From NCBI GenBank assembly GCA_023438785.1, contig JAEXQJ010000176.1, positions 1 through 62,215 on the forward strand: DNA of 62,215 nucleotides, read 5' to 3'. The position numbers were made by a program, and so were the translations under genes. The notes under the pieces were generated by a model, which worked only from the letters and a program-made list of their open reading frames with translations, searched no databases and had not been told where the DNA came from. Below are positions 10,728 to 50,087 of this stretch, piece after piece (the first letter of the stretch is position 1; the number at the start of each line of letters is the position of its first letter). This stretch comes from Pseudomonadota bacterium. Lineage in GTDB: Bacteria; Myxococcota_A; Polyangia; Fen-1088.

Positions 10728-11438
10728 ATGCGGAGTCGTAAGGGGTGGATGGTGGTGGCGGTTGTGACGCTCGGCTTGTCGGCCGCGGCGTGCAGCGACG
10801 ATGATGACGAACCGACGGTGATAGGTGACGGTGGCGTCGACGCCATCACGTCGAACCTGAACCAGAACCAGGCCGTAGGTCTGATGATGCAGATCAATTC
10901 GAGCGAGGTCGCCGAGGCGCAGGTGGCCCAGGCCCGCGGTCAGGCGGCTACGGTGCGCGCCTACGCGGCTCGCATGATCACCGATCATCAGGCCTCCAAC
11001 AATCAACTGACCGCCGACCTGGTGACGGCGGACGTGGTCCCGACCGACAGCGACGAGCGCAGGGAGCTGCAGAACGATACCGACAACCAGGTGCAGTCAC
11101 TGTGGTCCGCCAGCACGGCGAAATTCGACCAGCAGTACATCAACAGCCAGGTGAACGAGCACCAGGACACGCTGTCGCTCATCGACACGAAGATCCTGCC
11201 TGCCATTACGAACCCGACCCTGCTCAATGATGCGCTCGCCTTGCGGGCCGTGGTGGTGCAACACCTGCAGCTGGCGCAGTCGATTCAGACTCTGCTGGGT
11301 ACGCCCGAGGCAAACACGACCTCCAGCGAGACAGAGACGGGCACTGGCACCACCGGCAGCGAGACCAGTACGGGGACCGGCACGGATACGGGGACCGGCA
11401 CGAACACGGCGACCGCGACAGGCCAGCCCGCCATGTAG
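10728..11438 (+). CDS. DUF4142-like (ferritin-like fold) lipoprotein with a Thr/Gly-rich low-complexity tail
   Basis: Lipobox LGLSAAAC. Two halves carry NSSEVAEAQVA...ITDHQ and FDQQYINSQVNEHQDTL patterns typical of DUF4142. The tail is TSSETETGTGTTGSETSTGTGTDTGTGTNTATATG. Confidence 0.7.
   Translation: MRSRKGWMVVAVVTLGLSAAACSDDDDEPTVIGDGGVDAITSNLNQNQAVGLMMQINSSEVAEAQVAQARGQAATVRAYAARMITDHQASNNQLTADLVTADVVPTDSDERRELQNDTDNQVQSLWSASTAKFDQQYINSQVNEHQDTLSLIDTKILPAITNPTLLNDALALRAVVVQHLQLAQSIQTLLGTPEANTTSSETETGTGTTGSETSTGTGTDTGTGTNTATATGQPAM
11319..11435 (+). repeat. low-complexity coding repeat (Thr-Gly/Thr-Ser) at the 3' end of the DUF4142-like gene
   Basis: Reiterated acg/acc-ggc codons encode (T-G/T-S) repeats. 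Confidence 0.6.
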
Positions 11439-11471
11439 CGCGACGGCCGAGCGCACAGCGCCGCCCGCGTG

Positions 11472-11486
11472 GTCCGCTGAGCGGAC
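11472..11486 (+). terminator. short GC hairpin downstream of the DUF4142-like gene (weak terminator candidate)
   Basis: GTCCGC-TGA-GCGGAC, followed about 15 nt later by TTCGTTT. There is no proper U-tract. Confidence 0.2.
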
Positions 11487-11572
11487 TGCCGGGCGGCCTT
11501 CGTTTGGCCCTGCGCACAGCCGTGACTCGGGCGAGCCCGCGTGTCAGGCTTCCCGCTCCGCGGGAGGGGGAC

Positions 11573-12649
11573 ATGTTTTCGGTGGCGAGCAACTTCGACG
11601 ACGAGCTGCCGGCGCAGCTGACGGGCATGGAAGTCGACGAGCTGTTCGGCTCGTGTGACGACGCGCCCGTGGGCCACGGCCGACCGCGGGCCATGGTCCC
11701 GCCCGTCACCTGGCGCACGCTGGCCCGTCATGTGGCCCGGGGTCGGGCGGCGGGCCTGGGCTTCAATCTCCTGCTCAATCCCTTGTGCCTGAGCGGGTTC
11801 GAGGAGAACACGCGTCTGGAACGCCGTCTCCGCTCTGCCCTGCGCCGGGCCGAGGCCATGGGCGTGACCGCGGTGACCGTGGCCCATCCGTGGTTGGTGA
11901 GCCTGGCGCGCGAGACGGCCTTGCGTGTGCGCGTGGGCGTGTTCGTGGGCATCGCGACCGTCGAGCAGGCGCGCTACTGGGAAGAGCTGGGCGGCCACGT
12001 GCTGGCCCTGGACACGCACGTGCTCAGTCGGGATCTGTTGCAGATTCAGCGGATCGTGCAGGCGGTGCACGCCCAGGTGGAGGTGCCGGTGAACATCGGC
12101 TGCCTCCTGCGCTGCCCGCTGGCCCGCACCCACGTGGCCCGCCTGTCCCACGCTTCGCGCCCCGGTGTTCAGCCCATGGACCCGTGCGTGCGCTGGTGCA
12201 TGGATGAGAAGCGCCGCGATCCCGTGAACCTGATCCGTGCCGACTTCATCCGGCCGGAGGATCTGGATCGCTACCGGGAAGTGGGCGTGAACAGCTTCAA
12301 GATCGTCGACCGCTCCTGCGCGACCGAGGTGCTGGTGGAGAGGGTGCGCGCCTATCACCAGCGGCGCTGGGACGGCAATGTCTTGCATCTGCTGGGCCCG
12401 CGCGGGGATCCGCCGCGTCGGCGCCGCTTGCCCATCTTCGATTCCCTGCGCCACCTGGGGCTGTTCGGCTCCCTACGCTTGCTCCGCCAGGCGCGCGAGT
12501 TCATGCGACTGGAGCTGCCGTGGAGCGTGGACAACCGTGCCCTCGACGACTTGCTCCTGCCCAACGGTTGCCAGGCCACCGAGTGCGAGGATTGTGGGCA
12601 CTGTGCCGACGTGGCCACCCGAGCCGTGTGTCGCATCGCGGTCCCGTGA
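11573..12649 (+). CDS. divergent peptidase-U32-family protein (UbiU/UbiV/RlhA-type family) with two Cys clusters
   Basis: ATG 11573 is preceded by GGGAGGGGG. N-terminal SNFDDEL...ELFG...GRP...GFNLLLNPLC, central GVTAVTVAHPWLVSLARE, and FKIVDRSCATEVLVERVRAYHQRRW (compare the KIEGR region) match my recollection of short U32 proteins. Cys clusters are GCLLRC...CVRWC and CQATECEDCGHC (12569-12604). The canonical PROSITE U32 signature is not intact. Confidence 0.6.
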   Translation: MFSVASNFDDELPAQLTGMEVDELFGSCDDAPVGHGRPRAMVPPVTWRTLARHVARGRAAGLGFNLLLNPLCLSGFEENTRLERRLRSALRRAEAMGVTAVTVAHPWLVSLARETALRVRVGVFVGIATVEQARYWEELGGHVLALDTHVLSRDLLQIQRIVQAVHAQVEVPVNIGCLLRCPLARTHVARLSHASRPGVQPMDPCVRWCMDEKRRDPVNLIRADFIRPEDLDRYREVGVNSFKIVDRSCATEVLVERVRAYHQRRWDGNVLHLLGPRGDPPRRRRLPIFDSLRHLGLFGSLRLLRQAREFMRLELPWSVDNRALDDLLLPNGCQATECEDCGHCADVATRAVCRIAVP

Positions 12650-12652
12650 ACC

Positions 12653-13690
12653 ATGGCCAGCGCCATTCTCCACGTGGCCACGGCGGTGCCCGCGCACCTC
12701 CTCGATCAGAAGAGCGTGAAGCGGGCTCTGGAGCCGCACTTCCCCGTGGCCGAAGCGCGGCGGGCGGCGATCCTGGCCCTCTTCGATCGCGCCCTCGTCG
12801 AGCGGCGTTTCAGTGTGTTGCCTCTGGAGCTGCTGCTCCAGCCGCGCGGCATCGGCGAGGCCATGGCGCTCTATCGCGAGCACGCCGTGGGATTGGCTTG
12901 CCAGGCCGCGGCCGCCTGCCTGGAGGGCGCGGGCCGGTCTGCCGAAACCGTGGATTTGGTCATCACCACGTCGTGCACGGGGTTTTTGATTCCTTCGTTG
13001 GAGGCCCACATGGTGAACCGCCTGCGTCTGCGCCCCGACGTGCGCCGCTTGCCCATCACGGCGCTGGGCTGCAGCGCGGGGGCGGCAGCCCTGGGGCGGG
13101 CGCACGACTTCCTGCGCGCCTACCCCGACGCGCACGTCTTGGTCGTGGCCGTGGAGTTGCCCTCTCTCAGTTTCCAGCCGCGCGACGGGTCCATGGGGCA
13201 GATCGTCTCCACGGCCATCTTCGGGGACGGGGCCGGCGCCGCTTTGCTCGGCGATGGAGCTGGCCTGCACCTCGTGGACGTGGAGTCGTGCCTCTTCTCC
13301 TCCAGCTTGGACGTGTTGGGGTTCGAGCTGCGTGACGACGGCTTTCACGTGGTGCTGGGAAAGGAGCTGCCCGCCGTCCTGCGCTACAACCTGGCGCCGG
13401 CGGTGGGCCGGTTGCTCGATCGTTCGGGGCTACGCCCGACTGACTTGCGTTTCAGCGCCCTGCACCCCGGGGGCCGTCGCATCCTGACCGCCGTGGAGGA
13501 GGCCCTGGGCCTGCCGCGCGCGGTGACCCAGCCGGCCTGGGACGTGTTGCGCGACTACGGCAACCTGTCCAGCGCGGCGGTGTTGTTCGTCCTGGCCCGT
13601 TGTCTGCAGCAGCCGCACGCGGGCTCGGGGCTGCTGGCTGGATTCGGTCCGGGACTGGCCGTGGATTTGGGCCTTCTGCGCTGGGGTTAA
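12653..13690 (+). CDS. type III polyketide synthase (chalcone/stilbene synthase superfamily)
   Basis: The catalytic triad is present: Cys in ITALGCSAGA (codon 13070-13072), His in ALHPGGRRIL (13463-13465), Asn in DYGNLSSAAV (13562-13564), plus FGDGAGA and GFGPG loops. The gene starts 3 nt after the U32-like stop. Confidence 0.92.
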   Translation: MASAILHVATAVPAHLLDQKSVKRALEPHFPVAEARRAAILALFDRALVERRFSVLPLELLLQPRGIGEAMALYREHAVGLACQAAAACLEGAGRSAETVDLVITTSCTGFLIPSLEAHMVNRLRLRPDVRRLPITALGCSAGAAALGRAHDFLRAYPDAHVLVVAVELPSLSFQPRDGSMGQIVSTAIFGDGAGAALLGDGAGLHLVDVESCLFSSSLDVLGFELRDDGFHVVLGKELPAVLRYNLAPAVGRLLDRSGLRPTDLRFSALHPGGRRILTAVEEALGLPRAVTQPAWDVLRDYGNLSSAAVLFVLARCLQQPHAGSGLLAGFGPGLAVDLGLLRWG

Positions 13691-13692
13691 TC

Positions 13693-15180
13693 ATGGAGCC
13701 GACTGTCTCGTTGCCCCTCTACTCGGGTCTGGTGCTGCTCGTGTCGGCGATTCGCGGGGGCGAGTTGGTCATCTCCAAGCGCAACCGCCGCACGCTGCAC
13801 GCCACGGGAGTCGGTGCGGTGGGTGAGCCGCACTTTCGCGCCATGGTCATCCTGCACGTGGCCGTCCTGGCGGGCGCGTTGTTGGAGGCGTGGGTCACGC
13901 GGCGTTCGTTGCGCATGGGCCTGGCGGTGCCGGCGCTGGGCCTGCTGGTCGGGGCCTCGGCGCTGCGCTGGTGGGTCATCGCCACGCTGGGGCCACATTG
14001 GAACGTGGCCATCATGGATTCCATCGGCAGCGCGCGGGCGGTGGTGACCCACGGGCCCTACGCGCACATTCGCCACCCCAACTACGTGGCCGTGTTCGCG
14101 GAGCTGCTGGCCCTGCCCCTGGTCCATGGGGCGTGGCTGACCGCCGCGGCGGGGGCGGTGGCTCACGTGTGGGTCCTGCGCCACCGCATCCGCGCCGAGG
14201 AGAGCGTGCTCCTGGCGCACCCGAGCTACCGCGCGGTCATGGCCCAGCGCCCTCGCTTCCTGCCCCGTCCCCTGCTCACGAGCCTGGAACACGCCTGGGA
14301 CGTGGTGCGATTGGGACGACCGTTGTTCTTGCTGGGAGGTCTGGCGCTCTACGGTCTGGGCGTGGCGGCCAGCCCTGGGCTCATACGTGGCCAACTCTTC
14401 TGGCTGGGGCTGGGCGCGGTCTGTTGCCTGCAGCTCATGACCCACTACTCGAACGAATATTTCGACTACGCGGCCGATTCGGCCAACCGCACGCCTACAG
14501 CCTGGTCCGGCGGCAGTCGCGTGCTGTGCGAGGGGCGGCTGCCACGCTGGGCGGCGCTGGTGGCGGCCCTGGTCGCGGCGGGGTTGGGGCTGGCGCTGGC
14601 CGTGGTCATCCGGCGGGTGGCGGGCCTGCTGCCGGCCGCCTTGCTCGTCGGGATTGCGGCGCTGTCGTGGACCTACAGCGCGCCGCCGGGCCGCCTGCAT
14701 TCGCGCGGCCTGGGCGAGGTGGACGGCGCGTTGGTGGTCACGGTGCTGGTGCCGCTCTTCGCGCTTGCCCTGCACGCGCCGGGGTTGACAGGACTGCGCC
14801 CCTTGCTCCTGGCCACCGTCCCGCCCGGCTGCCTGCAATTTGCCATGTTGATGGCCGTGGCCATCCCCGATGCGGCGGCTGACGCGCAGGTGGGCAAGCG
14901 TACGCTGGCCGTGCGGTTGGGCTCCACCTGGGCTTGGCGCACGCACGCCGCAGCCACAGCGCTGGCCTACGCCACGGTGCCGGTGCTCTACGTGGCCGGT
15001 CTGCCGCGCGCGGTGGCCCTGGCCGCCCTCGTCGTCGCGCCCTTCGCTGCTCGCCACCTGGCGCGCATGTCCCGCGGCCGCGCGCTCCAGAGCCCGAACT
15101 GGCCGGCCCTCACCTTCTGGCCCGCTGCCTTGCTCATCCTGACCACGGCCGCCGAGGCGGTTGCGTTCCTCTTGCTCTAG
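13693..15180 (+). CDS. fusion protein: N-terminal ICMT-family membrane methyltransferase plus C-terminal UbiA/MenA-type aromatic prenyltransferase
   Basis: N-half (about the first 190 aa): THGPYAHIRHPNYVAVFAELLALP and RIRAEESVL motifs of isoprenylcysteine carboxyl methyltransferase-like enzymes. C-half: NEYFDYAAD (14452-14478) and DAAADAQVGKRTLAV (from 14869), the two Asp-rich UbiA motifs, with about 8 further helices. It is a single uninterrupted frame, and the ATG lies 2 nt after the PKS stop. Confidence 0.8.
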   Translation: MEPTVSLPLYSGLVLLVSAIRGGELVISKRNRRTLHATGVGAVGEPHFRAMVILHVAVLAGALLEAWVTRRSLRMGLAVPALGLLVGASALRWWVIATLGPHWNVAIMDSIGSARAVVTHGPYAHIRHPNYVAVFAELLALPLVHGAWLTAAAGAVAHVWVLRHRIRAEESVLLAHPSYRAVMAQRPRFLPRPLLTSLEHAWDVVRLGRPLFLLGGLALYGLGVAASPGLIRGQLFWLGLGAVCCLQLMTHYSNEYFDYAADSANRTPTAWSGGSRVLCEGRLPRWAALVAALVAAGLGLALAVVIRRVAGLLPAALLVGIAALSWTYSAPPGRLHSRGLGEVDGALVVTVLVPLFALALHAPGLTGLRPLLLATVPPGCLQFAMLMAVAIPDAAADAQVGKRTLAVRLGSTWAWRTHAAATALAYATVPVLYVAGLPRAVALAALVVAPFAARHLARMSRGRALQSPNWPALTFWPAALLILTTAAEAVAFLLL

Positions 15181-15232: not shown

Positions 15233-15787
15233 TCAGGGTTCGGGGGAGGCGTCGAGCTCCCGAAGGGTCTTGGCGGCGCGCTGGACGATGGCCGCGCGGA
15301 CCTCGTCGTCGAGTTGTTTCATGCTGTTCAGCGAATCTGTGAACGCTGCGGTGTCGAGGACGACCAAGGCCCAGAAGGTCCCGGTGTCCGAAACCCACGT
15401 GTCCTGCAGGCGCGCGCTGGAGAGCGCGCCGTCGGTGATCTGCTTGGAGAGGTCCTCGACGTGTTGCTCGCCGGCCACGTCCGACCGCGTGGCCGTTTGG
15501 TATTCCCTGAGCATGGCCTTCACGCCCATCTGAAGCCCGCGCGCTAGATCGGCGCGCGCGCGTCCCTCGGCGGCGGAGCGAGCCAGAGACACGTTCGTCA
15601 TGCCCTGCACGCTGCCGACGCCGCAGAGCCCCTTGTGGTCGGGCAAGCCGGCCAGGCAGCTCCCCTTGGCCCACGCGGGCGCGCCGGCCAGTTCGGCTTG
15701 CAGGGTGGGCTTGGGCTTCTCGGGGCCGCCACAGCCCAGCCCGACGGTGCCCGCAACCACCAAGCCAACCAGATTCAGCTTCGACAT
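15233..15787 (-). CDS. LPP20-like lipoprotein
   Basis: Lipobox TVGLGC. GVGSVQGMTNVSLARSAAEGRARADLAR and TFWALVVLD resemble LPP20-family lipoproteins (recall). Confidence 0.55.
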   Translation of the reverse strand: MSKLNLVGLVVAGTVGLGCGGPEKPKPTLQAELAGAPAWAKGSCLAGLPDHKGLCGVGSVQGMTNVSLARSAAEGRARADLARGLQMGVKAMLREYQTATRSDVAGEQHVEDLSKQITDGALSSARLQDTWVSDTGTFWALVVLDTAAFTDSLNSMKQLDDEVRAAIVQRAAKTLRELDASPEP

Positions 15788-16987: not shown

Positions 16988-17335
16988 TCAGTGGATCCGC
17001 ATCTGGAAGATCCAGTTGACCAGCGTGATAGCCCCCGAGGAGTAGAAAAGAGCGCGGGTCGACCGGAGCTCGAAGGACTTGAGGAGCTTGTCCGTAAGCC
17101 AGAGCAGGGCCGTATTGACCAGCAGCGAGGTGAAGAGCAGCAGCAAGCCCAAGGTCAACAGGGTGGGCACCACGAGGAGCAGGCGCAGGAACCACCCGAG
17201 GCCCCAGTTGAGCGCGCTGAAGACCACGGCCACGAGGGCCGCCGTGGTCGGGGTCTTCAGGTAGATGCCGTTGTGCAGTCGACTGAGTCCGAGGACGGTC
17301 AGCGCCAACAGTGCCACGTGCAGGATCGTGTACAT
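16988..17335 (-). CDS. small 4-TM membrane protein (phage holin family IV / YvlD-like)
   Basis: The 115-aa product has four hydrophobic helices, with NWGLGWFLRLLLVP...LLVNTALLWLTDKL as in the PF04020-type family (recall). Confidence 0.5.
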   Translation of the reverse strand: MYTILHVALLALTVLGLSRLHNGIYLKTPTTAALVAVVFSALNWGLGWFLRLLLVVPTLLTLGLLLLFTSLLVNTALLWLTDKLLKSFELRSTRALFYSSGAITLVNWIFQMRIH

Positions 17336-17451
17336 GGCGCAAGCATAGCGCTGACCGCGCGGCGCGCCCAGGTCGTGCGCCGGCCTCCGGTCATCTCGAC
17401 GTCAGGGCGTCGCCTTGCCTAGCCGACGGCCGCATGCAAAGAGAGAACGGC

Positions 17452-17826
17452 ATGCACGAGACCGCGGTCGCCCAGCGCATGGTCGAAGTGGCCCTGGCCA
17501 CGGCGGCCGAGCACGGCGGTGGGCACGTGGTGGGCATGCGGCTTCTGCTGGGCGAGCTGACCTGCCTGGATGCGGAGACCCTGACCTTCGCGTTCGAGAT
17601 CGCCGCGCGCGGCACCGCCGCCCGCGCCTGCAAGCTGGACATCGAGCGCATCCCCACGCGCATCCGTTGTACGGAATGCGGGCAGGAGCGGGGTGGCGAT
17701 CTGCTGGAGCCTTGTGCGGGATGCGGGCAGCCGGGCGGCGATGTGGTGGCCGGACGCGAGCTGCACATGCTGACGATCGACGTGGACGACGCGCTCGCGG
17801 CGGGATTGGATGAGGGGGGAACATGA
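17452..17826 (+). CDS. hypA: hydrogenase nickel-insertion protein HypA
   Basis: MHETAVAQRMVEVA (MHE nickel site) and the zinc motif CTECG...CAGCG. Confidence 0.88.
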   Translation: MHETAVAQRMVEVALATAAEHGGGHVVGMRLLLGELTCLDAETLTFAFEIAARGTAARACKLDIERIPTRIRCTECGQERGGDLLEPCAGCGQPGGDVVAGRELHMLTIDVDDALAAGLDEGGT

Positions 17827-18485
17827 GCACGCAGATCGAGGTGGTGCGAGATGTCCTGCAGGACAACAGCGACAATGCCGAGGCCAACCGCAAGCTGTTC
17901 GCGGCGCGCGGCGTGTACGTGGTCAACCTCATGTCCGGACCGGGCGCCGGCAAGACCACGCTGCTCGAACGCACCGCCGCGGGACTGGGCGGTCGGCTGC
18001 GCATGGCCGTCATCACGGGCGATATCGACACCACCCGCGACGCCGATCGCATCGCCCGCCACGGCGTGCCCGCGCTGCAAATCAACACGGGCGGAGGCTG
18101 TCACATCGAGGCTCACCAGATCACCCGTTCCCTGCGGCAGCTCCCCGGCTCACTCGACCTGCTGGTCATCGAGAACGTGGGCAACCTGGTGTGCCCGGCC
18201 GAGTTCGATTTGGGCGAACACGACAAGGTCATGATCCTGTCCTGCACCGAGGGGCACGACAAACCGGCCAAGTACCCGCTCATGTTCAAAGAGTCGCGGG
18301 CCATGGTCCTCAACAAGATCGATCTTCAGCCCTACACCAACTTCGACGTGGACGCGGCCGTGGCCGATGCCAGGGCGCTCAATCCCGCCATCGACATCAT
18401 TCAGATGTCGGCCTGGAAGGGCGAGGGCCTGGAGGCCTGGTTCGCCTGGCTGGAGGCGCGCGTGGCCTCGGTCAAGCGCGGCTGA
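17823..18485 (+). CDS. hypB: hydrogenase nickel-incorporation GTPase HypB
   Basis: P-loop NLMSGPGAGKTTLLE, a CH motif (GGGCHIEAH), ENVGNLVCP and NKIDL. There is no His-rich N-terminus. It overlaps the hypA stop. Confidence 0.92.
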   Translation: MSTQIEVVRDVLQDNSDNAEANRKLFAARGVYVVNLMSGPGAGKTTLLERTAAGLGGRLRMAVITGDIDTTRDADRIARHGVPALQINTGGGCHIEAHQITRSLRQLPGSLDLLVIENVGNLVCPAEFDLGEHDKVMILSCTEGHDKPAKYPLMFKESRAMVLNKIDLQPYTNFDVDAAVADARALNPAIDIIQMSAWKGEGLEAWFAWLEARVASVKRG

Positions 18486-18488
18486 GCC

Positions 18489-20753
18489 ATGGCCGAGCGT
18501 GCGGGCCAGCGTATCCGGCTGCGCGGCATCGTGCAGGGGGTGGGCTTCCGGCCCTGGGTGTGGCGTATGGCCCACGCGGCGGGGGTGAGCGGGCGGGTGT
18601 GGAACGATGGCCAGGGCGTGACCATCGAGGCCTTCGGAACCCCGGCGGGGTTGCAGGATTTCCACGAGCGCCTGGCCACCCCGCCGCCTGCAGCCTCGGT
18701 TACAGCGCGTGAGTGCGAGGACATCGCGCCCCAGCCGGCGGGCGAGTTCCTCATCTCGTCCAGCGCGGACAGCGGCGACGAGCCACGGGTTTCCATCCCC
18801 GCGGACATCGCCACCTGCGACGCGTGCCTGGCGGAGATCGCGGATCCCCGGGCGCGTCGCTTTCGCTACGCCCTCACCAACTGCACGCAGTGCGGGCCGC
18901 GTTTCTCCATCGCGCGTGCCATCCCCTACGATCGCGCCCACACCACCATGGCCGCCTACGAGCTGTGCCCGGCCTGCCGAGCCGAATACGAGGATCCGGC
19001 GGACCGCCGCTTCCATGCCCAACCCATCGCTTGTCCCGTGTGTGGCCCGCGGTTGCGGCTCTTGGATCCCGAGGGCCGCATCCTCGATGGCGAGCCCCTC
19101 GGCCGCGCCGCCGAGCTGCTGGCCGAGGGACACGTGCTGGCCGTCAAGGGCATCGGCGGCTACCACCTGTGTTGCGATGCCACCTCCGGGGCGGCGGTGC
19201 ACAAGTTGCGCCAGCGCAAGCGGCGCGACGAGAAGCCCCTGGCCCTGATGGTGAAGGATCTGGCCGCCGCTCAGGAGCTGGTGGAGTTGGAGGCGGGTGA
19301 GCCGGCGCTGCTCACGTCGCCCGAGCGGCCCATCGTTTTGGCGCGCCGACGAGCCACGGCCCAGGTGGCGCCCGAGGTGGCGCCCGCCAATCCCCTGCTC
19401 GGCATCTTCCTCGCTTATTCGCCGCTGCACCACCTGCTGCTCTCCGAGGTTCGCCGGCCCCTGGTCATGACCTCGGGCAACCTGTCGGAGGAGCCCATCG
19501 CCTTCGACGACGGGGATGCGCGCCAGCGGCGGGGGCGCATCGCCGACGCCTTCCTGATGCACGATCGGTCGATCGAGAACGCCTGCGATGATTCGGTGGT
19601 TCGCGTGGTGGCGGGGGCGCCCTCGCTCTTGCGGCGCTCGCGTGGCTACGTGCCTCGGCCCATCCACTTGCCGGTGGCGCTGGCGCGTCCGGTGTTGGCC
19701 TGCGGGGCTCATCTGAAGAACACCTTCTGCGTGGCCCGCGGCGGGCAGGCCTATCTGGGGCCGCATATGGGTGATCTGGACAACCTGTCCTGCATCAACG
19801 CCTACGAGCGCGCGATGGAGCGCCTGCTGCGCTTCACGGGCATCGTGCCCGAGATCGTGGCCCACGACCTTCACCCCGACTACGCGTCCACCCGTTTCGC
19901 GCGCGGGCGGCCGGAGCCGCTCAAGGTGGCCGTGCAGCACCACCACGCCCACGTGGCCGCGGCCATGGCGGAGCACGGGCTCACGGGCCCGGTGCTGGGC
20001 GTGGCCTACGACGGCACGGGAATGGGCCCCGACGGTACCGCTTGGGGCGGCGAGATCCTGCTGTGCGAGCTGGCGCGCTTCGAGAGGTTGGCCACCCTGC
20101 GGGCCCTGCCCTTGGCCGGGGGCGAAGTGGCCATTCGACAGCCCTGGCGACTGGCCCTGGCCCTACTCGACGACGCCTTTGCCGGTGATCCGCCGCTGCA
20201 GGCGTTGGCCCTGTTCCAGCGCGTGTCCTCCGCGGAGGTGGCTCTGGTGCGCCGGATGATCGCCCAGCGCCTCAACGCGCCTTTGGCCCACGGTGCGGGT
20301 CGTTACTTCGATGCCCTGGCGGCCCTGGGCCTGGCCGCTCCGCACGCGCGTTTCGAGGGTCAGTTGGCCATGGCCTGGGAGTGCGTGGCCGATCCGCTGG
20401 AAGAGGGGCGATACCCCTTCGTCATCGAAGGAGAGGCTCCCTTGGCCGTCGACCTGCGGCCGCTGGTGCGCGAATCCGTGCGCGAGTTGATCGCGAAGAC
20501 CTCGCCCGCCGTGGTCTCGGCGCGGTTTCACAACACCCTGGTGGTCGCCACGGCGGAGCTGATTCGTATCATCTTGCGGCGCACGGGGCCCTTGCCCGTG
20601 GTGCTGACCGGCGGTTGTTTCCAGAACGCGCGTCTGGCCGAGTCGCTGCTGCGTGAGCTGCGCGGCCCGGTGCACTTGCACCGGCAGGTGCCGCCCGGTG
20701 ACGGCGGCTTGGCCTTGGGCCAGGCCGTGGTGGCTGACGCCATGTCTCGGTAG
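18489..20753 (+). CDS. hypF: carbamoyltransferase HypF
   Basis: Acylphosphatase domain (RGIVQGVGFRPWV), two CxxC-x18-CxxC zinc fingers, a YrdC-like domain (KGIGGYHLCCDA) and a Kae1-like C-terminal half. Confidence 0.95.
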   Translation: MAERAGQRIRLRGIVQGVGFRPWVWRMAHAAGVSGRVWNDGQGVTIEAFGTPAGLQDFHERLATPPPAASVTARECEDIAPQPAGEFLISSSADSGDEPRVSIPADIATCDACLAEIADPRARRFRYALTNCTQCGPRFSIARAIPYDRAHTTMAAYELCPACRAEYEDPADRRFHAQPIACPVCGPRLRLLDPEGRILDGEPLGRAAELLAEGHVLAVKGIGGYHLCCDATSGAAVHKLRQRKRRDEKPLALMVKDLAAAQELVELEAGEPALLTSPERPIVLARRRATAQVAPEVAPANPLLGIFLAYSPLHHLLLSEVRRPLVMTSGNLSEEPIAFDDGDARQRRGRIADAFLMHDRSIENACDDSVVRVVAGAPSLLRRSRGYVPRPIHLPVALARPVLACGAHLKNTFCVARGGQAYLGPHMGDLDNLSCINAYERAMERLLRFTGIVPEIVAHDLHPDYASTRFARGRPEPLKVAVQHHHAHVAAAMAEHGLTGPVLGVAYDGTGMGPDGTAWGGEILLCELARFERLATLRALPLAGGEVAIRQPWRLALALLDDAFAGDPPLQALALFQRVSSAEVALVRRMIAQRLNAPLAHGAGRYFDALAALGLAAPHARFEGQLAMAWECVADPLEEGRYPFVIEGEAPLAVDLRPLVRESVRELIAKTSPAVVSARFHNTLVVATAELIRIILRRTGPLPVVLTGGCFQNARLAESLLRELRGPVHLHRQVPPGDGGLALGQAVVADAMSR

Positions 20754-20806
20754 CGGCCTGCCCCCGCGCTGGTTGCGGCGTGGCGTCCTCCTGCTATGAC
20801 CTCGCG

Positions 20807-21091
20807 ATGTGTCTCGGCGTGCCCGGTAGGGTGGTTGCCATCGACGGCTTGGTGGCCAGGGTGGACTTTTTCGGTGTGCAGCGCGAGGTGCGCTTGGACA
20901 TCGTGGATGAGCCCGTGGCCCCCGGCGACTACGTGCTGAACCACGTGGGTTTCGCCATCCGGCGGATCCCGCCCGAGGAGGTGGGCGAAACCCTCAAGCT
21001 GTTCGAGGAACTGGCCGCCGCCGCGCAGGACGAGCTGCTGGCGGCGGACCGGCAAGCCGAGCTGACGGCCGCCGACGAGGCGAAGACGTGA
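20807..21091 (+). CDS. hypC: hydrogenase assembly chaperone HypC/HupF
   Basis: Canonical N-terminus MCLGVPGRVV. The Ala/Glu-rich C-terminal extension is longer than usual. Confidence 0.88.
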   Translation: MCLGVPGRVVAIDGLVARVDFFGVQREVRLDIVDEPVAPGDYVLNHVGFAIRRIPPEEVGETLKLFEELAAAAQDELLAADRQAELTAADEAKT

Positions 21092-22209
21092 CGGGTGCGG
21101 CGGAGCTGAAGTTCCGCGACCCGGACCGGGCGCGCGCTCTCTATACGGCGCTCCATCGCTTGATGGCGGCCATGAGGCGGCCCGTGTCGCTCATGCACGT
21201 GTGCGGCACGCACGAGCAGGCCATCGCCCGTTTCGGCCTGCGCGCCGGCCTGCCCAGTGGCTTGCGCATCATCATGGGCCCGGGCTGCCCCGTGTGCGTG
21301 ACCGACCGCCCCGAGGTGGACGCGGCCGTGGACCTGGCCCTACAGGGCGTGCGCCTCGCCACCTACGGCGACATGGTCCGGTTGCCCGGAAGCCGCATGT
21401 CCCTGGCCGATGCCCAAGCCGAGGGCGCCCAAGTTCACGTCGTGTACAGCGCCCTGCAGGCCGTGGAGTTGGCGCGCGTTCGTCCCGAGCCGCTGGTCTT
21501 CTTCTCGTCGGGCTTCGAGACCACTGCGGTGGCTACGGCGGCCATCGTGCAGGCCGAGCCGCCGTGCAACTTCTCCGTCTTGTCCGCGCACAAGTACGTG
21601 CCGGCCGCCATGGAGGCGGTGGCGCGGCTACCGGCCGCCCAGGTGGAGGGCTTCCTGGCCGCGGGGCACGCGGCGGTCATCACGGGTTGGGGCCTCTTCG
21701 AGGACTTCGCCCGACGGCACCGCAGGCCCGTGGTGGTGGCGGGCTTCGAGCCGCTCGACATCCTGGCCGCGCTGATCAAGTTGCTGGAGATGGTCAGAAA
21801 CGATGATGCCCGCGTGGCCAACGCCTATCCGCGCTGTGTGACCCGCGAGGGAAACCGCAAGGCGCAGGAAGCCCTGTGGCGGGTGTTTCGCAAGGCCGAC
21901 GGCCCCTGGCGCGGCATCGGTATCATCCCCGACGGGAATCTGGAGCTGCGCGATGAATGGACACGCTTCGATGCGCGCCAGCGTTTCACGGTGAAGAGCA
22001 ACTGGCGCGCGGAGCCGCCATCGGAGGCGGCCGGGCGCTGCCTTTGCGGAAAGATCATGGTCGGCTTGGTGGAGCCCACCGACTGCCCGCTGTTCGGCCA
22101 CGCGTGCACACCCGATGCCCCCGTGGGGGCGTGCATGGTGTCCAGCGAGGGCACCTGCAGGATCTGGCATCGGTACGGGGGACGCCCCGACCTGGGGAGC
22201 AGCACATGA
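21088..22209 (+). CDS. hypD: hydrogenase maturation protein HypD
   Basis: MHVCGTHE, GPGCPVCV, FETT and a C-terminal CxxC-rich Fe-S region. The GTG start overlaps the hypC stop. Confidence 0.93.
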   Translation: MTGAAELKFRDPDRARALYTALHRLMAAMRRPVSLMHVCGTHEQAIARFGLRAGLPSGLRIIMGPGCPVCVTDRPEVDAAVDLALQGVRLATYGDMVRLPGSRMSLADAQAEGAQVHVVYSALQAVELARVRPEPLVFFSSGFETTAVATAAIVQAEPPCNFSVLSAHKYVPAAMEAVARLPAAQVEGFLAAGHAAVITGWGLFEDFARRHRRPVVVAGFEPLDILAALIKLLEMVRNDDARVANAYPRCVTREGNRKAQEALWRVFRKADGPWRGIGIIPDGNLELRDEWTRFDARQRFTVKSNWRAEPPSEAAGRCLCGKIMVGLVEPTDCPLFGHACTPDAPVGACMVSSEGTCRIWHRYGGRPDLGSST

Positions 22210-23228
22210 GTCACAGGCTCAGCGATCGAGTGGCGCTCAAACACGGCGCGGGCGGGCCCGCCATGCGGGCGCTCATCGAAGAGGTCTTCGTCGGCGCCTT
22301 GGCTCAGCCCGGGCCCGGGGTGGGCCTAGACGCCATGGATGACGGCGCGGTTTTGCCCGTGGGCGATCAGTGGTTGGTCCTGACCACCGACTCCTATGTC
22401 ATCAAGCCGCTCTTCTTTCCGGGCGGCGACATCGGGCGGCTGGCGGTGTCGGGCACGATCAACGATTTGGCCATGATGGGCGCCACCCGGCCCCTGGGCC
22501 TGACCTGCGCCGTGATCATCGAGGAGGGCTTCGCCCGCGCCGATCTGGAGCGCATCCGGGATTCGCTGCGGGCGGCGTGTGCCGAGGCCGGCGCGCGCAT
22601 CGTGACCGGCGACACCAAGGTCATGGGCAAGGGCGAGTTGGACGGCGTCGTCATCAACACGGCGGGCGTGGGGCTGGCCGAGCGGGTGGTGCGCGATGCG
22701 GGCCTGCGCGTCGGCGATCGCATCATCGTGACCGGCACGATCGGCGATCACGGCTTCGCGGTCATGGCGGCGCGCCACGACTTGCACCTGGAGGGCCCGC
22801 TGGCCTCCGACGTGGCGCCGCTCAACGGCCTGGTGCGCGCGGGGCTGGCCGCAGGTCAAGTGGTGGCCATGAAGGATCCCACGCGTGGCGGGGTGGCCAG
22901 CGCCCTCACCGAAATGGCGGGCAAGGCCCAGGTGGGAATCGTGCTCGACGAGACGGCGTTGCCCGTGCAGCCCCAGGTGCGCGCCGCCTCCGAGTTGCTG
23001 GGCGTGGATCCCTTGCATGTGGCCAACGAGGGCAAGGCGCTCATGGGCGTGCGACCCGAGTCCGTGGAGCGCGTGCTGGCGGCCTTGCGCGCTCACCCGC
23101 TGGGCCGCGCCGCCGCCGTCATTGGCACGTGCGTGGCCGAGCGCCCCGGCTCCATCGTCCTCGACACCGGCTTCGGCCGTCGCCTGCTGGCGGAACCCGA
23201 GGGGGAGCTGCTGCCGCGTATCTGCTGA
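22206..23228 (+). CDS. hypE: hydrogenase maturation protein HypE
   Basis: ALKHGAGGPAM, a PurM-like fold, and the C-terminal PRIC motif (ELLPRIC) that carries the thiocyanate cysteine. The ATG overlaps the hypD stop. Confidence 0.93.
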   Translation: MSHRLSDRVALKHGAGGPAMRALIEEVFVGALAQPGPGVGLDAMDDGAVLPVGDQWLVLTTDSYVIKPLFFPGGDIGRLAVSGTINDLAMMGATRPLGLTCAVIIEEGFARADLERIRDSLRAACAEAGARIVTGDTKVMGKGELDGVVINTAGVGLAERVVRDAGLRVGDRIIVTGTIGDHGFAVMAARHDLHLEGPLASDVAPLNGLVRAGLAAGQVVAMKDPTRGGVASALTEMAGKAQVGIVLDETALPVQPQVRAASELLGVDPLHVANEGKALMGVRPESVERVLAALRAHPLGRAAAVIGTCVAERPGSIVLDTGFGRRLLAEPEGELLPRIC

Positions 23229-43514: not shown

Positions 43515-45479
43515 TCAGGGTAGGACGGCTTTGATGGTCGAGCATAGCTCGTGAAGCATGAACGGCTTCGCGAGCGTGCGAGTAAAACCAGAAGAGCGCG
43601 TTCCAGGCAACAGTTCTTGGTCCGCGTAGCCGGTGATGGCGATGGCGAGCAGGTTGGGATCCAAATGGCGGAGCCTGGCGAGGGCCTCGGCCCCGCCCAT
43701 GCCGCCGCGAACGGTGAGATCCAGGATCGCAAGTTGGAAGGGCGCGCCCGCGGTACGGGCGCGAAGGAATTCCGACACGGCCTGGTCGCCGTCGCCCACA
43801 ACCACGACCGAGTATCCGACCTTGCTGAGGCCTCGTTCGAGGAGTGTGCGAATCGCGATCTCGTCGTCCATGACCAGGATCCGCGCCGAGCCCCGTTCGA
43901 GCGAACCGGTCATCGCTGGTGCCTGTGCGGCCTGGTCATCCACGGCTGGGATCTCTAGCTCGAAGGTCGCGCCTTCACCCGGGCGTGAGCGGACCGAAAG
44001 CTGACCGCCGTGCTCGGTCACGATGGCGTAGCTGGTGGCCAGCCCCAAGCCGCTGCCGTCCCGCTTGGTGGTGAAATATGGCTCGAAAATCTGGTCGACG
44101 ATGTCAGCGGGAATACCCGGTCCATTGTCGGCGATGGTCAGCCTGACCAGGCGGGCAGGGCGCCCGGCCGCGTGTGAGCTGTCGTCGACCACGGCCACCG
44201 AAACCGTGATCGCCCCCTGGTCGTTCATGGCCTGACGAGCGTTGACCAGCAGGTTGCTCAGGACCTGGGCCATCTGACCGGGATCCACGACCGCCATGGC
44301 CGGCGCTTCGCTGTAGCGCTTTTCGCAACGGATGGACGAGCCGCTGAGGGCGAGGAGGATGCTTTCGTCGAGCAAGGGGCGCAGGTCGGTGGCCTTCCTT
44401 GCCGCGGCTCCTCGTTTGGCGAAGGTCAGCAGCCTTCGCGTCAAATCGCGAGCCCGGTCAAACGCGGCCCGCGCGAGCGTGCGATTGGCCTCGCGCTCAG
44501 TATCGTCCAGGACAATCCGAGGATCGAGATCCAGCCCTGCAAAGATGCCCATGAGCAGGTTGTTGAAGTCGTGGGCCACGCCGGCCGCAAACAGGCTCAA
44601 CGATTCCAGCCTTTGCACGCGGGCCAGCTCCTGGCGCAGACGGCGTTCCTCGGTCACGTCGGCGCACGAGAGCATGTGACCAAGCGGCGTGTGATCCTCA
44701 CCGGCGATGGCGTGCTTCTCAATCCGCACCCAGATCGGTTTCGATGAGCTGACCGGAGCGGCGAGCTGCATTTCGGGGGAGCCTTGCTGGTCACGATCGG
44801 CGAACCACCCTTCGAAAGCCGTGCGCGAGGCGAACAGGGCGCTGACCGGCTTTCCAAGAAGGTCATCGACGGTCTTCTCCAGCATGCGAAGGATGGTGGG
44901 ATTGGCGTAGGTGACGTCACCGCCGGGACTGGTGAAGAGAATCCCGCTCGAAGATGAGGCCAGCGCGAAGTCCTTCAGCCGTAGCGCCTGATTCACCTTC
45001 TCCAACTCGGCCAGCTTGTCCTCGAGCTTGTGGATGAGAACCTGGCTGTATTGCTGCAGGAAGGGGGCCTCGGCGGCTTGGCTCTCCCGCTGGTTGCGCG
45101 GGCGTTCGCTGCAACGTGCGAGGACCTCGCGCACCCGTTCCATGAACACCGCGGGTTCGGTGGGCTTGACCAGGAACAGGTCGGCACCCAGGCTCAGGGC
45201 CAGATCCTCGTCGCGTTTGTCGACGTAGGTGGCGGTGTAGATGATGAAAGGAATGGCGCGGAAACGTGGATCGGCCCTCCACGCGCGGCACAGGCTGAAC
45301 CCGTCCATCACCGGCATGAGGATGTCGGAAATGACCACGTCGACGGCATGCGCCTCGGCGAGGTTCAAGGCCTCGCGACCGTTGGGCGCCTCCAGGACGG
45401 AGAAGCCTTCCGCGGTCAGCAGACAGCGGAGGAGGTAGATTCCCTCCGGGTGATCGTCGACGACGAGAGCCACTTTCAT
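43515..45479 (-). CDS. hybrid histidine kinase: receiver, coiled coil, PAS, HisKA, HATPase, receiver
   Basis: N-terminal receiver (VVDDHP...[10 protein letters not shown]...VKP), H-box [17 protein letters not shown] and GSGLGL boxes, and a C-terminal receiver (VMDDE...[12 protein letters not shown]). Confidence 0.88.
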
Positions 45480-45865
45480 GGCGATTCCTCTCCCGTGGCG
45501 GGCACGTGAGCCCGTAGCTGTTCGACAAAGGTGTCGGGATTGATCGGTTTTTCGATGTATCCGGTCGCGCCCGCGGCCAGGGCCTTCTCGCGGTCGCCGA
45601 CCATGGCGTATGAGGTCACGACGATGATGGGTGTCTCGCGCTGTCCCTCCTGCTGTCGCAGCTTCTGCGCGACCGCGTAGCCGTCCAGGTCCGGAAGCTG
45701 GATGTCGAGCAGAATCAGATCGGGGTTGGTCTCTTTGGCCACGGCCAAACCTTGATGGCCATCACGTGCCTCTCTGACCACAAAGCCACTCTTCTCGAGC
45801 AAGAACCTCATCAGATAGAGGTTTTGCTCGTTGTCTTCGATGATGACCACGGTTCGAGCCTTCAT
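45476..45865 (-). CDS. single-domain CheY-like response regulator
   Basis: [10 protein letters not shown]...[11 protein letters not shown]...TSYAM...EKP. It overlaps both neighbouring genes by 4 nt. Confidence 0.9.
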
Positions 45866-48174: not shown

Positions 48175-48379
48175 GGGGAGCCCTCGAGGACATCGTATCC
48201 CAAATGCGTCCCGTCTTGCTGCACCTTGTGCATGGGCCGGGGGCCGCGGGCTGGGTGAGGCTCGACTCTCCGATACAGAAAGACCCTAGTTCGGACGATT
48301 GGACAGCCGAGGGGGGAATTGCCTCGGGGCCCGTGAGGCGTAGTGTCTGGAGAGCAGCCCACTTGCAAGGAGACGTCAG

Positions 48380-50050: not shown

Positions 50051-50087
50051 GCTAGTCCGCGGAACGCGCGAGGCTCCGGTCAGCCGT

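Follow-up and report, generated by a model that had tools for sequence, protein, structure and literature searches.

A U32-type protein in a myxobacterial type III polyketide synthase operon: a probable O2-independent route to a quinone-like membrane lipid

Three adjacent genes of an uncultured myxobacterium, encoding a U32-like protein, a type III polyketide synthase (PKS), and a fusion of an ICMT-type methyltransferase with a UbiA-type prenyltransferase, form one operon whose product, by analogy with characterized systems, is probably a quinone-like membrane lipid made with no requirement for O2. This product would be a phenolic polyketide bound to the membrane that has been oxygenated, O-methylated, and prenylated. 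We lean toward an alkyl-methoxy-(hydro)quinone as its most likely identity, in effect a “polyketide quinone” analogue carrying a prenyl chain. The U32-like protein probably serves this pathway as an O2-independent ring hydroxylase, in the place of the flavin monooxygenases SrsC, PkqC, and AgqB. The logic of a pathway with these four functions is already known from agqABCD; new here are the class of the hydroxylase and the fusion of methyltransferase and prenyltransferase.

Organization of the operon

The operon lies in a window of 62,215 nt, which is the whole stretch of DNA that was analyzed (Table 1). Reading of the sequence bore out the layout given in the original prediction, with gaps of 3 nt (U32-like/PKS) and 2 nt (PKS/fusion), a 134-nt spacer upstream, and a convergent gene downstream. 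The three genes and their junctions are thereby confirmed. A second, independently assembled genome of this organism (L107) has gene calls of 358, 345, and 495 aa, and third-position GC is 0.83 to 0.87 across the three ORFs. The gene order is repeated in more than 20 distinct loci, so a chance arrangement is no concern.

The promoter presumably lies within the 134-nt spacer, in which searches for a σ70 consensus match and for an Rfam element returned none. A Shine–Dalgarno-like GGGAGG is located 5 to 6 nt 5′ of the ATG of the U32-like gene. All U32-like homologues share the N terminus MFSVA(S/T)NF, which is matched by the start at ATG 11573; an upstream TTG (11504) was rejected as the start because the conserved N terminus fits ATG 11573 instead.

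Table 1. Features of the operon and its borders (positions in the window)
Feature	Position	Strand	Details
Upstream DUF4142 gene			stop TAG 11436-11438
Intergenic spacer	11439..11572	+	134 nt, sequence read
Shine–Dalgarno-like GGGAGG	11562-11567		
U32-like (putative Fe–S) protein gene	11573..12649	+	358 aa; stop TGA 12647-12649
Type III PKS gene	12653..13690	+	345 aa; ATG 12653, stop TAA 13688-13690
ICMT–UbiA fusion gene	13693..15180	+	495 aa; ATG 13693, stop TAG 15178-15180
ICMT (PF04140) match in fusion	13936-14211		residues 82-173
UbiA (PF01040) match in fusion	14347-15075		residues 219-461
Convergent LPP20-lipoprotein gene	15233-15787	−	

Recurrence of the U32–PKS linkage

The order U32>PKS>ICMT-UbiA is kept in the more than 20 Myxococcota-type loci, which come from metagenome bins, with short gaps or overlaps between the genes (PKS and fusion overlap by up to 10 nt in relatives) and completely different flanks. 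In line with the proposal of a self-contained operon, the three genes are a conserved unit amid unrelated surroundings. The U32-like subfamily as a whole is large and divergent, comprising 744 clusters at 50% identity (E ≤ 1e-30). Gene neighborhoods were counted at 34 distinct U32-like loci, each flanked on either side by no less than 2.5 kb. A type III PKS is encoded within a few kb at 24 of the 34, and a methyltransferase of the ICMT or UbiE type at 26. Close homologues (65 to 72% identity) are also encoded where no PKS is near, for example, next to cytochromes (L003, L005, L016, L044, and L088).

Adjacency of the U32-like and PKS genes takes at least five gene architectures, and the PKSs from different architectures are only 25 to 30% identical to each other. 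The type C loci also carry genes for an MMPL-type transporter and a YceI-family protein. Linkage of all three functions, U32-like protein, PKS, and methyltransferase, extends well beyond Myxococcota, for example, to a bin labeled Desulfuromonadaceae, and is also seen at loci with B12-radical-SAM genes. The U32–PKS pairing recurs in many uncultured bacteria, some of them labeled as typically anaerobic groups. Among the best 120 U32-like homologues, none is labeled as coming from a cultured organism, and most carry no source name.

The U32-like protein

The U32-like protein matches Peptidase_U32 (PF01136) with 34.9 bits (cut-off 22.4, E = 1.3e-8), the match being a partial one in which residues 85 to 171 cover profile positions 3 to 88 of 233, i.e., the N-terminal third of the model. 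A U32 (TIM-barrel-like) fold is predicted by both sequence and structural model: the family profile matches the Mk0906 U32 structure (PDB 5D88, E = 2e-17), which is also the best Foldseek match of the AF2 model (pLDDT 87.4, pTM 0.87; E = 5e-11, target TM 0.70). Eight cysteines are invariant across the subfamily in the homologue alignment. One set, C177-x3-C181-x23-C205-x3-C209 plus C72, is invariant or nearly so, and a second set, C333-x4-C338-x2-C341-x2-C344, is located near the C terminus; both are candidate Fe–S cluster ligands.

The predicted fold and the Pfam family are shared with the O2-independent ubiquinone hydroxylases UbiU/UbiV(/UbiT) and with the RNA-modification factors RlhA and TrhP, as is, in general terms, the possession of conserved cysteine sets. 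The family [4Fe–4S] motif consists of four cysteines spaced CX6CX15CX3/4C (PMC6747719), whereas the spacing here is CX3CX23CX3C, and the C-terminal Cys4 motif is additional. In hhalign comparisons, C177 and C181 align on C169 and C176 of UbiU, weakly so (probability 20.5%, E = 1e-3), and the probability for UbiV is 0.3%. The protein has no family match in NCBIfam, and it is encoded by a lone U32 gene rather than a UbiU–UbiV pair; on these grounds, we rejected it as a UbiU/UbiV orthologue. The earlier assignment to the U32 family stands, above the cut-off, with the qualification that the match is a partial one and UbiU/UbiV orthology is rejected. No SCP2-type (UbiT) gene was found within the annotated ~5 kb on either side of the operon.

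The studied U32 proteins UbiU/V, RlhA, and TrhP are all tied to O2-independent hydroxylation, direct in vitro hydroxylase activity not having been demonstrated so far; UbiU and UbiV each bind a [4Fe–4S] cluster, and prephenate is the required oxygen donor (PMC6747719, PMC10990095).

Domains of the PKS and the fusion protein

Pfam assigned all the remaining domains that had been proposed. By sequence, the PKS is placed in the type III family of the chalcone/stilbene synthase superfamily (Chal_sti_synt_N, PF00195, 80.2 bits; Chal_sti_synt_C, PF02797, 64.1 bits). Its catalytic triad is complete, as originally noted (Cys140/His271/Asn304), and is conserved in 37 of the 37 U32-linked PKSs aligned.

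In the fusion protein, an ICMT-type SAM methyltransferase domain (approximately aa 1–200; 79.8 bits) precedes a UbiA-type prenyltransferase domain (approximately aa 205–495; 75.2 bits). The ICMT motifs seen earlier, RHPNY at 127 and EE at 169–170, are invariant in 14 homologues, and both Asp-rich UbiA motifs, N254-x3-D258-x3-D262 and D393-x3-D397, are conserved in 14 homologues. Sequence-level matches to the ICMT structures 5VG9 and 4A2N point to the ICMT-type membrane methyltransferase family for the N-terminal domain. Membership of the C-terminal domain in the UbiA superfamily is likewise indicated by the AF2 model (pLDDT 81.2), whose best Foldseek matches are UbiA-family proteins (4TQ4, E = 3e-5; UBIAD1 8DJK, target TM 0.76; 4OD5, target TM 0.78). 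According to a hydropathy and charge profile, the linker and both catalytic loops lie on the K/R-rich side. An assignment as MenA equivalog was rejected, as the best score, 62.5 bits, falls short of its cut-off of 264, and TIGR00751 scores 37.4 where 102 is needed.

Proposed pathway and comparison with known systems

In the proposed pathway, the type III PKS would take a fatty-acyl starter from primary metabolism and malonyl-CoA to form an alkylresorcinol-type ring, to which the U32-like protein would add an extra hydroxyl without O2. Prephenate may be the oxygen donor, as it is for UbiU/UbiV, and the two cysteine sets would carry electrons. The ICMT domain would then O-methylate one hydroxyl with SAM as donor, and the fused UbiA domain, working on the cytoplasmic side of the membrane, would add an isoprenoid chain. 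The analysis establishes the domains, their catalytic motifs, and the conserved linkage of the genes; we infer what the substrate is, how the steps are ordered, where the ring is hydroxylated, whether C or O is prenylated, how long the chain is, and whether the lipid has a part in respiration. The repeated linkage of the subfamily to type III PKSs and methyltransferases supports a role of the U32-like protein as ring hydroxylase. Weighing against the proposal are the partial Pfam match, the deviating cysteine spacing, the weak hhalign result, the close homologues that lack a neighboring PKS, and a head group that sequence does not predict (see below). The lipid-quinone setting and the proposed O2-free hydroxylation of an aromatic ring recall UbiU/UbiV; the substrate here would be a polyketide and not a ring derived from 4-hydroxybenzoate.

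The nearest counterpart is agqABCD of Actinoplanes missouriensis, described as encoding a type III PKS, a monooxygenase, a methyltransferase, and a UbiA-like prenyltransferase that make alkyl-O-dihydrogeranyl-methoxyhydroquinone (Awakawa 2011, cited in PMC7692728 and PMC10896814). Compared with that description by function and domain, both systems would combine four functions, including an alkylresorcinol-making type III PKS, in one small cluster and share the expected product class, a prenylated methoxy alkylhydroquinone. By domain, the present operon has three of these functions. As far as the description goes, the slot of AgqB, an O2-dependent monooxygenase, is taken by the U32-type protein, the methyltransferase (ICMT-type here) and prenyltransferase are one polypeptide only in the present operon, and the host of agqABCD is an actinomycete rather than an uncultured myxobacterium. 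The original prediction that no cluster of this composition had been characterized consequently needs narrowing, as agqABCD has the four functions, to the hydroxylase class and the fusion. Its overall interpretation is supported, each of the computational checks suggested with it having turned out favorably.

The alkylquinone operons srsABC (Streptomyces griseus) and pkqABC (Mycobacterium smegmatis and Streptomyces sp. MNU77) combine a type III PKS, a membrane methyltransferase, and a hydroxylase or oxidoreductase; their polyketide quinones are alternative electron carriers under scarce O2 (PMC9927152). The present operon resembles them in having three genes, with PKS, membrane methyltransferase, and a third slot for a redox enzyme. 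It differs in gene order, the U32 gene being first, and in the prenyltransferase, which they lack; their hydroxylation is by an O2-requiring flavin enzyme, whereas here the U32-like protein is the third component and a flavin monooxygenase is absent in and beside the operon. The same absence was noted next to every U32>PKS>ICMT-UbiA operon examined. In the literature searched, no paper connected U32 proteins or UbiU with type III PKSs.

We regard as unlikely, yet as the foremost alternative, a non-quinone phenolic lipid, i.e., an alkylresorcinol or alkylpyrone that is methoxylated and prenylated and serves for structure, protection, or antibiosis, as such lipids do in Azotobacter cysts, S. griseus, or M. 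xanthus. In that case, the U32-like protein would perform other redox chemistry (e.g., on the alkyl chain, the starter, or in ring reduction) and no ring hydroxylation para to a hydroxyl. There are precedents in bpsA/bpsB (Bacillus subtilis) and dquA/dquB (Sporomusaceae), in which a type III PKS gene is directly followed by one for an ICMT-like membrane O-methyltransferase and which yield methyl ethers of alkylpyrones or alkylresorcinols without any hydroxylase, in the case of DquAB in strict anaerobes (PMC9827899). The transporter and YceI-family genes of the type C loci would also suit an exported or envelope lipid. However, all studied U32 proteins are tied to reactions that hydroxylate an aromatic or heteroaromatic substrate at an sp2 carbon of its ring (PMC6747719, PMC10990095), the recurrent trio of PKS, methyltransferase, and third redox enzyme resembles the srs and pkq operons, which form quinones (PMC9927152), and respiratory cytochromes adjoin some U32-like family members. 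The bps and dqu loci, moreover, differ from the present operon in having two genes, with neither hydroxylase nor prenyltransferase, and in making products that are not quinones.

The alkylpyrone cluster of M. xanthus (MIBiG BGC0001831), like the present operon a type III PKS phenolic-lipid cluster, reportedly includes a pentapeptide-repeat gene and an ACP of its own. It is given as one of five clusters conserved across Myxococcota (Hug et al. 2019, as cited in PMC12766979), and a fatty acyl-AMP ligase (FAAL) is listed for its pathway (PMC11837247). No FAAL, ACP, or pentapeptide-repeat gene lies within ~5 kb on either side of our operon.

Head group of the polyketide

Phe224 of the PKS occupies the position equivalent to Gly256 of CHS and Trp281 of ArsB. 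A rule based on such a Trp fails, as DquA has the Trp, yet yields only pyrones (PMC9827899). The closest solved structures are THNS (1U0M, 2.9e-54) and Pks11 (4JAO, 3.1e-54), a statistical tie, and because the two score equally, the head group is not predictable. The tie lends something to an improbable reading in which the PKS makes tetrahydroxynaphthalene, as RppA/THNS-like synthases do, and the operon yields a naphthoquinone bearing hydroxyl, methyl, and prenyl groups, a menaquinone-like lipid of polyketide origin. The THNS-specific cavity residues, reportedly from work by Austin in 2004 and Funa in 2002, are, in S. coelicolor numbering, Cys106, Cys168, Cys171, Tyr224, and Ala305. Cys106 is retained as C108 and position 224 is aromatic (F224), but Cys168 and Cys171 are replaced by P170 and S173, and Ala305 by S306, a Ser as in Pks11. 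Similarly, MenA models are the best NCBIfam matches of the UbiA domain, but all score far below cut-off (at most 62.5 bits vs 102–555). ICMT-type methyltransferases, furthermore, are known as partners of alkyl-type PKSs (PMC9827899), which also counts against a naphthoquinone.

Genomic company

The genomic company of the U32-like/PKS loci, which includes B12-radical-SAM genes, the Desulfuromonadaceae-labeled bin, hemerythrin, a NorB-type (nitric-oxide-reductase-like) gene, and hyp genes, fits low O2, the O2 physiology of the hosts being assumed because the organisms are uncultured. The speculative hint at low O2 that had been read from the hyp operon near the present genes found no support; in L001, the closest relative, the two do not lie side by side.

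Source annotations name the U32-like protein a PrtC-type protease (“collagenase-like PrtC”), and homologues with 65 to 75% identity also occur alone or beside cytochromes, as would suit a gene merely cotranscribed with the PKS and coding for a peptidase or a hydroxylase of RNA, the main respiratory quinone, or another substrate, but this is very improbable given the PKS within a few kb at most assessable loci despite widely differing PKS lineages, the 3-nt spacing here and the overlaps in relatives, the eight invariant cysteines, and a U32 family that, to our knowledge, has no protease catalytic motif.

Organization of the operon

The three plus-strand ORFs of the original prediction, encoding a U32-like protein, a type III polyketide synthase (PKS), and an ICMT–UbiA fusion, are present exactly as described, both in their coordinates (see table) and in their Pfam domains. 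The window has a G+C content of about 70%, and the third-position GC is 0.83 to 0.87 in all three ORFs. An independent assembly of the same organism (L107) gives identical gene calls of 358, 345, and 495 aa. The 134-nt leader gave no Rfam match to a riboswitch or other RNA element and contains no σ70 consensus; terminator-like matches are no more common than in shuffled sequences.

Features of the operon and of the downstream hyp set
Feature	Coordinates	Strand	Remarks
DUF4142 gene			upstream of operon; stop TAG 11436–11438
Spacer			134 nt, upstream of U32-like gene; GGGAGG 5–6 nt before ATG 11573
U32-like gene	11573–12649	+	ATG 11573; TGA 12647–12649
Type III PKS gene	12653–13690	+	ATG 12653; TAA 13688–13690
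ICMT–UbiA fusion gene	13693–15180	+	ATG 13693; TAG 15178–15180
LPP20-type lipoprotein gene		convergent	52 nt beyond fusion-gene stop
hyp set (hydrogenase maturation, complete)	17311–23228	+	2–8 kb downstream of operon
hypA	within ORF 17311–17826	+	Pfam match
hypB	17823–18485	+	
hypF	18489–20753	+	
hypC	20780–21091	+	
hypD	21088–22209	+	
hypE-like AIRS protein gene	within 21957–23228	+	

Conservation of the three-gene unit

The order U32-like > PKS > ICMT–UbiA recurs in the closest relative, a JGI contig (L001) whose proteins are 87, 77, and 69% identical to those of the window, in several ENA, JGI, and NCBI contigs (L007–L012), in Myxococcales bins from fen (L014, L015, and L017), and in many more metagenome contigs (L026–L042, L050, L056, and L103). 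The source names of these loci point to Myxococcota, mostly Polyangia. Gaps inside the unit are a few bases, or the genes overlap, and the flanks differ completely between loci. Thus, L007 has methionine synthase and a NorB-type (nitric-oxide-reductase-like) gene, L010 has a hydrolase and a polyketide-cyclase-like gene, and L012 has hemerythrin and OmpA.

An apparent deletion remnant of the operon was seen in a 259-kb contig of MAG MFD02138.bin.2.6 (L020:7001–7459), where U32 codons 1 to 43, at 91% identity to the window, are joined directly and in frame to the final ~110 UbiA-domain codons; judged from the sequence, this join implies a loss of about 3 kb. A second locus, L021:747–1992, resembles this remnant, its two alignments overlapping in different frames. 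Such apparent remnants suggest that the operon is dispensable in some lineages.

The U32-like protein

The Pfam Peptidase_U32 match (34.9 bits; cut-off 22.4) is limited to residues 85 to 171, corresponding to profile positions 3 to 88 of 233. The fold assignment also draws on a profile of 19 homologues, which matched the sole solved U32 structure, Mk0906 (5D88), with E = 2e-17, and on an AlphaFold model (pLDDT 87.4, pTM 0.87), for which 5D88 was the best Foldseek match (E = 5e-11, target TM 0.70). The protein had no NCBIfam match, and hhalign aligned it weakly to Escherichia coli UbiU (probability 20.5%, E = 1e-3) and not at all to UbiV. Hence, UbiU/UbiV orthology was ruled out, and by sequence the protein is a divergent member of the U32 family.

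Eight cysteines (C72, C177, C181, C209, C333, C338, C341, and C344) are invariant in the alignment of homologues, and C205 is nearly so. In the weak hhalign alignment, C177 and C181 fall on UbiU C169 and C176, two of the [4Fe-4S] ligands of that protein (PMC6747719). The first cysteine set has the spacing CX3CX23CX3C, whereas that of the U32 family is CX6CX15CX3/4C, and there is an additional C-terminal CX4CX2CX2C set. A single chain may thus hold two clusters, compared with one each in UbiU and UbiV. Residue 57, which is not conserved in the family, is the sole difference between the window protein (Gly57) and the representative of its 90%-identity cluster, P0001 (Cys57).

This is a large subfamily. 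Among the 1.84 billion representatives searched, it accounts for 744 clusters (50% identity) at E ≤ 1e-30 and for 2230 at E ≤ 1e-3, with mostly full-length matches.

Comparison with known quinone operons and proposed function

A PKS, a membrane methyltransferase, and a hydroxylase together make up srsABC and pkqABC, the characterized operons for alkylquinones or “polyketide quinones” (PMC9927152). According to Awakawa 2011, as cited in PMC7692728 and PMC10896814, agqABCD of Actinoplanes adds a UbiA-like prenyltransferase and yields alkyl-O-dihydrogeranyl-methoxyhydroquinones. The third slot, which holds the hydroxylase in srsABC and pkqABC, is always taken by the U32-like protein in the window operon and its relatives, and none of those examined has a flavin monooxygenase gene within the unit or next to it. 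Every U32 protein whose function has been studied (UbiU/UbiV, RlhA, and TrhP) has a link to hydroxylation without O2, with prephenate as the oxygen donor for UbiU/V (PMC6747719, PMC10990095).

Taken together, the missing monooxygenase, the occupied third slot, and the link of the studied U32 proteins to hydroxylation are most economically read as meaning that this subfamily would supply the extra ring oxygen without O2, and that the operon would make a phenolic lipid bearing hydroxyl, O-methyl, and prenyl groups, probably a (hydro)quinone. We infer the chemistry from these points and give this reading as a whole a somewhat better than even chance. Most U32 subfamilies are uncharacterized (PMC6747719, PMC10990095), and the present one could perform a different redox reaction on the way to a phenolic lipid that is not a quinone, which we regard as unlikely though worth keeping in mind.

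As for the favored route, O2-free hydroxylation by the U32-like protein, its pathway logic has precedents in agq, srs, and pkq. The apparent novelty, those clusters being likened by function and not by sequence, lies in the class of hydroxylase, the fused ICMT–UbiA enzyme, and the breadth of the U32–PKS association. The first type III PKS of an anaerobe was characterized in 2022, without a hydroxylase partner (PMC9827899), and searches of a literature library returned no article naming both U32 or UbiU and type III PKSs.

The PKS and the ICMT–UbiA fusion

The PKS matches Chal_sti_synt_N (80.2 bits) and Chal_sti_synt_C (64.1 bits) and retains the triad Cys140/His271/Asn304; its NCBIfam match, DpgA, is below threshold (154 bits; cut-off 425). 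Its closest solved relatives are in a statistical tie: the tetrahydroxynaphthalene (THN) synthase THNS of Streptomyces coelicolor (1U0M, 2.9e-54) and Pks11 of Mycobacterium tuberculosis (4JAO, 3.1e-54). The cavity residues are mixed, in that the equivalent of THNS Cys106 is kept and those of Cys168, Cys171, and Ala305 are Pro, Ser, and Ser; a THN-derived naphthoquinone as the product seems rather improbable. Phe224 occupies the position of CHS Gly256 and ArsB Trp281. Since DquA carries the “resorcinol” Trp and yet makes pyrones only (PMC9827899), the ArsB Trp281 rule fails there; the cavity residues of the window PKS give an ambiguous outcome, and in our view the head group cannot be foretold from the sequence.

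In the fusion protein, Pfam places ICMT at residues 82 to 173 (79.8 bits) and UbiA at residues 219 to 461 (75.2 bits). The UbiA domain scores at most 62.5 bits against the NCBIfam MenA models, all below their cut-offs of 102 to 555. In 14 homologues, the ICMT part retains RHPNY and EE, and the UbiA part retains NxxxDxxxD and DxxxD. The model (pLDDT 81.2) led Foldseek to UbiA-family structures (4TQ4, E = 3e-5; UBIAD1 8DJK, target TM 0.76; 4OD5, target TM 0.78). In a simple profile of hydropathy and charge, the arginine-rich linker lies on the same side as both catalytic loops, presumably the cytoplasmic one; this topology would fit a functional enzyme of two domains.

Unfused versions of the cluster were sought through stand-alone UbiA homologues (~50% identical), and both of the two examined had unrelated neighbors. 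In L048:1145–2978, a 78%-identical U32-like gene is directly preceded by a stand-alone UbiA gene of 360 aa, which has 43% identity to the fusion UbiA domain. This gene order is unlike that of the window, and the contig ends before any PKS could show.

U32–PKS linkage beyond Myxococcota

Subfamily members about 40% identical to the window protein, and one 75% identical, occur in other PKS architectures (see table).

Other architectures that combine U32-like and type III PKS genes
Gene order	Loci
B12-radical-SAM > unknown > UbiE-type methyltransferase > U32 > PKS < B12-radical-SAM	L023, L068, L070, L075, L081, L098, L099, L101
YceI > PKS > (MMPL > unknown) > U32 > UbiE-type methyltransferase	L022 (bin labelled Desulfuromonadaceae), L065, L096
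methyltransferase > U32 ... B12-radical-SAM > PKS	L060, L090, L102, L104
U32 > cupin > alpha/beta-hydrolase > PKS > methyltransferase (U32 member 75% identical)	L032, L054

The census took in 34 distinct U32-like loci for which 2.5 kb or more of sequence was available in each direction, on contigs chosen by similarity to the U32 protein and with no formal background rate. A type III PKS was present in 24 of these loci and an ICMT- or UbiE-type methyltransferase in 26. The true numbers are probably higher, since only a few query lineages served for detection and no flank exceeded 8 kb. Between architectures, PKS identity is only 25 to 30%, so the partnership either was retained while the sequences diverged very deeply or has arisen repeatedly; both histories, as read from sequence comparison, argue for functional coupling. 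There are exceptions. In L003, L016, and L044, homologues 65 to 72% identical have no PKS at the locus, and other homologues adjoin c-type cytochromes: L005 also has a cytochrome-bd-like oxidase, and L088 has multihaem cytochromes. We consider it very improbable that the U32 gene and the PKS lack functional coupling altogether.

The U32-like genes of L005:1–17013 (Candidatus Lambdaproteobacteria, GCA_016204605.1; 67% identical) and L088:2940–7272 (~42%) stand alone directly after c-type cytochrome genes. That of L005 directly precedes the cytochrome-bd-like oxidase (Cyt_bd_oxida_I) operon, and repeated gene pairs for PCP_red-domain and radical SAM/SPASM proteins also flank this locus.

Two conserved proteins recur in the non-myxobacterial U32/PKS/methyltransferase clusters, one of 258 aa (L023:5518–6294, L075, L081, L098, and L099) and one of 203 aa (L022:6256–6867 and L097). 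Neither belongs to a Pfam family or gave an SCP2 or UbiT-like match; they may be additional parts of the pathway, such as a lipid carrier with a UbiT-like role.

Low-oxygen setting and implications

The gene company of the U32–PKS loci, which includes the B12-radical-SAM partners, the Desulfuromonadaceae-labelled bin, hemerythrin, the NorB-type gene and, in the window, the hyp genes, agrees with low-oxygen habitats of these uncultured organisms. The hyp operon had been mentioned, as pure speculation, as a linked low-oxygen hint, an idea that found no support: L001 keeps the DUF4142, LPP20, 479-aa, and holin-like neighbors, has an MFS gene in place of hyp, and so has no hyp genes adjacent to the unit. 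No hydrogenase structural gene was found by Pfam among most ORFs of the window.

Known polyketide quinones (Mycobacterium, Streptomyces) are thought to aid respiration when oxygen is scarce, and their synthesis needs an O2-dependent hydroxylase (PMC9927152). A bolder and quite tentative proposal is that a widespread, undescribed U32 Fe–S subfamily acts as the O2-independent ring hydroxylase of type III PKS phenolic lipids, giving low-oxygen bacteria a complete anoxic polyketide-quinone route, and that the Myxococcota ICMT–UbiA fusion leads to a prenylated quinone serving as a genuine respiratory electron carrier beside or in place of menaquinone. If true, such a hydroxylase would resolve the paradox of a low-O2 quinone made with O2, carry the recently discovered prephenate-dependent U32 chemistry beyond ubiquinone and RNA into natural-product biosynthesis, give one of the many uncharacterized U32 subfamilies a function, and point to membrane redox lipids of a new class among uncultured anaerobes and microaerophiles. 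The analysis offers a candidate function for a large uncharacterized subfamily and, the operon being only 3.6 kb, a directly testable lead on O2-free polyketide-quinone synthesis.

Other features of the window

Elsewhere, the 62-kb window holds chromosomal housekeeping and signalling genes, and no FAAL, ACP, flavin monooxygenase, isoprenoid, or quinone genes were found among the ORFs scanned. ORF 47183–50293 (1036 aa), which overlaps a neighboring ORF and has no Pfam match, may be spurious. Large hybrid sensor kinases (PAS, GAF, CHASE, and receiver domains) are encoded in a row at 43515–53105 on the minus strand, partly in a stretch of slightly lower GC (63–68%, compared with ~70%).
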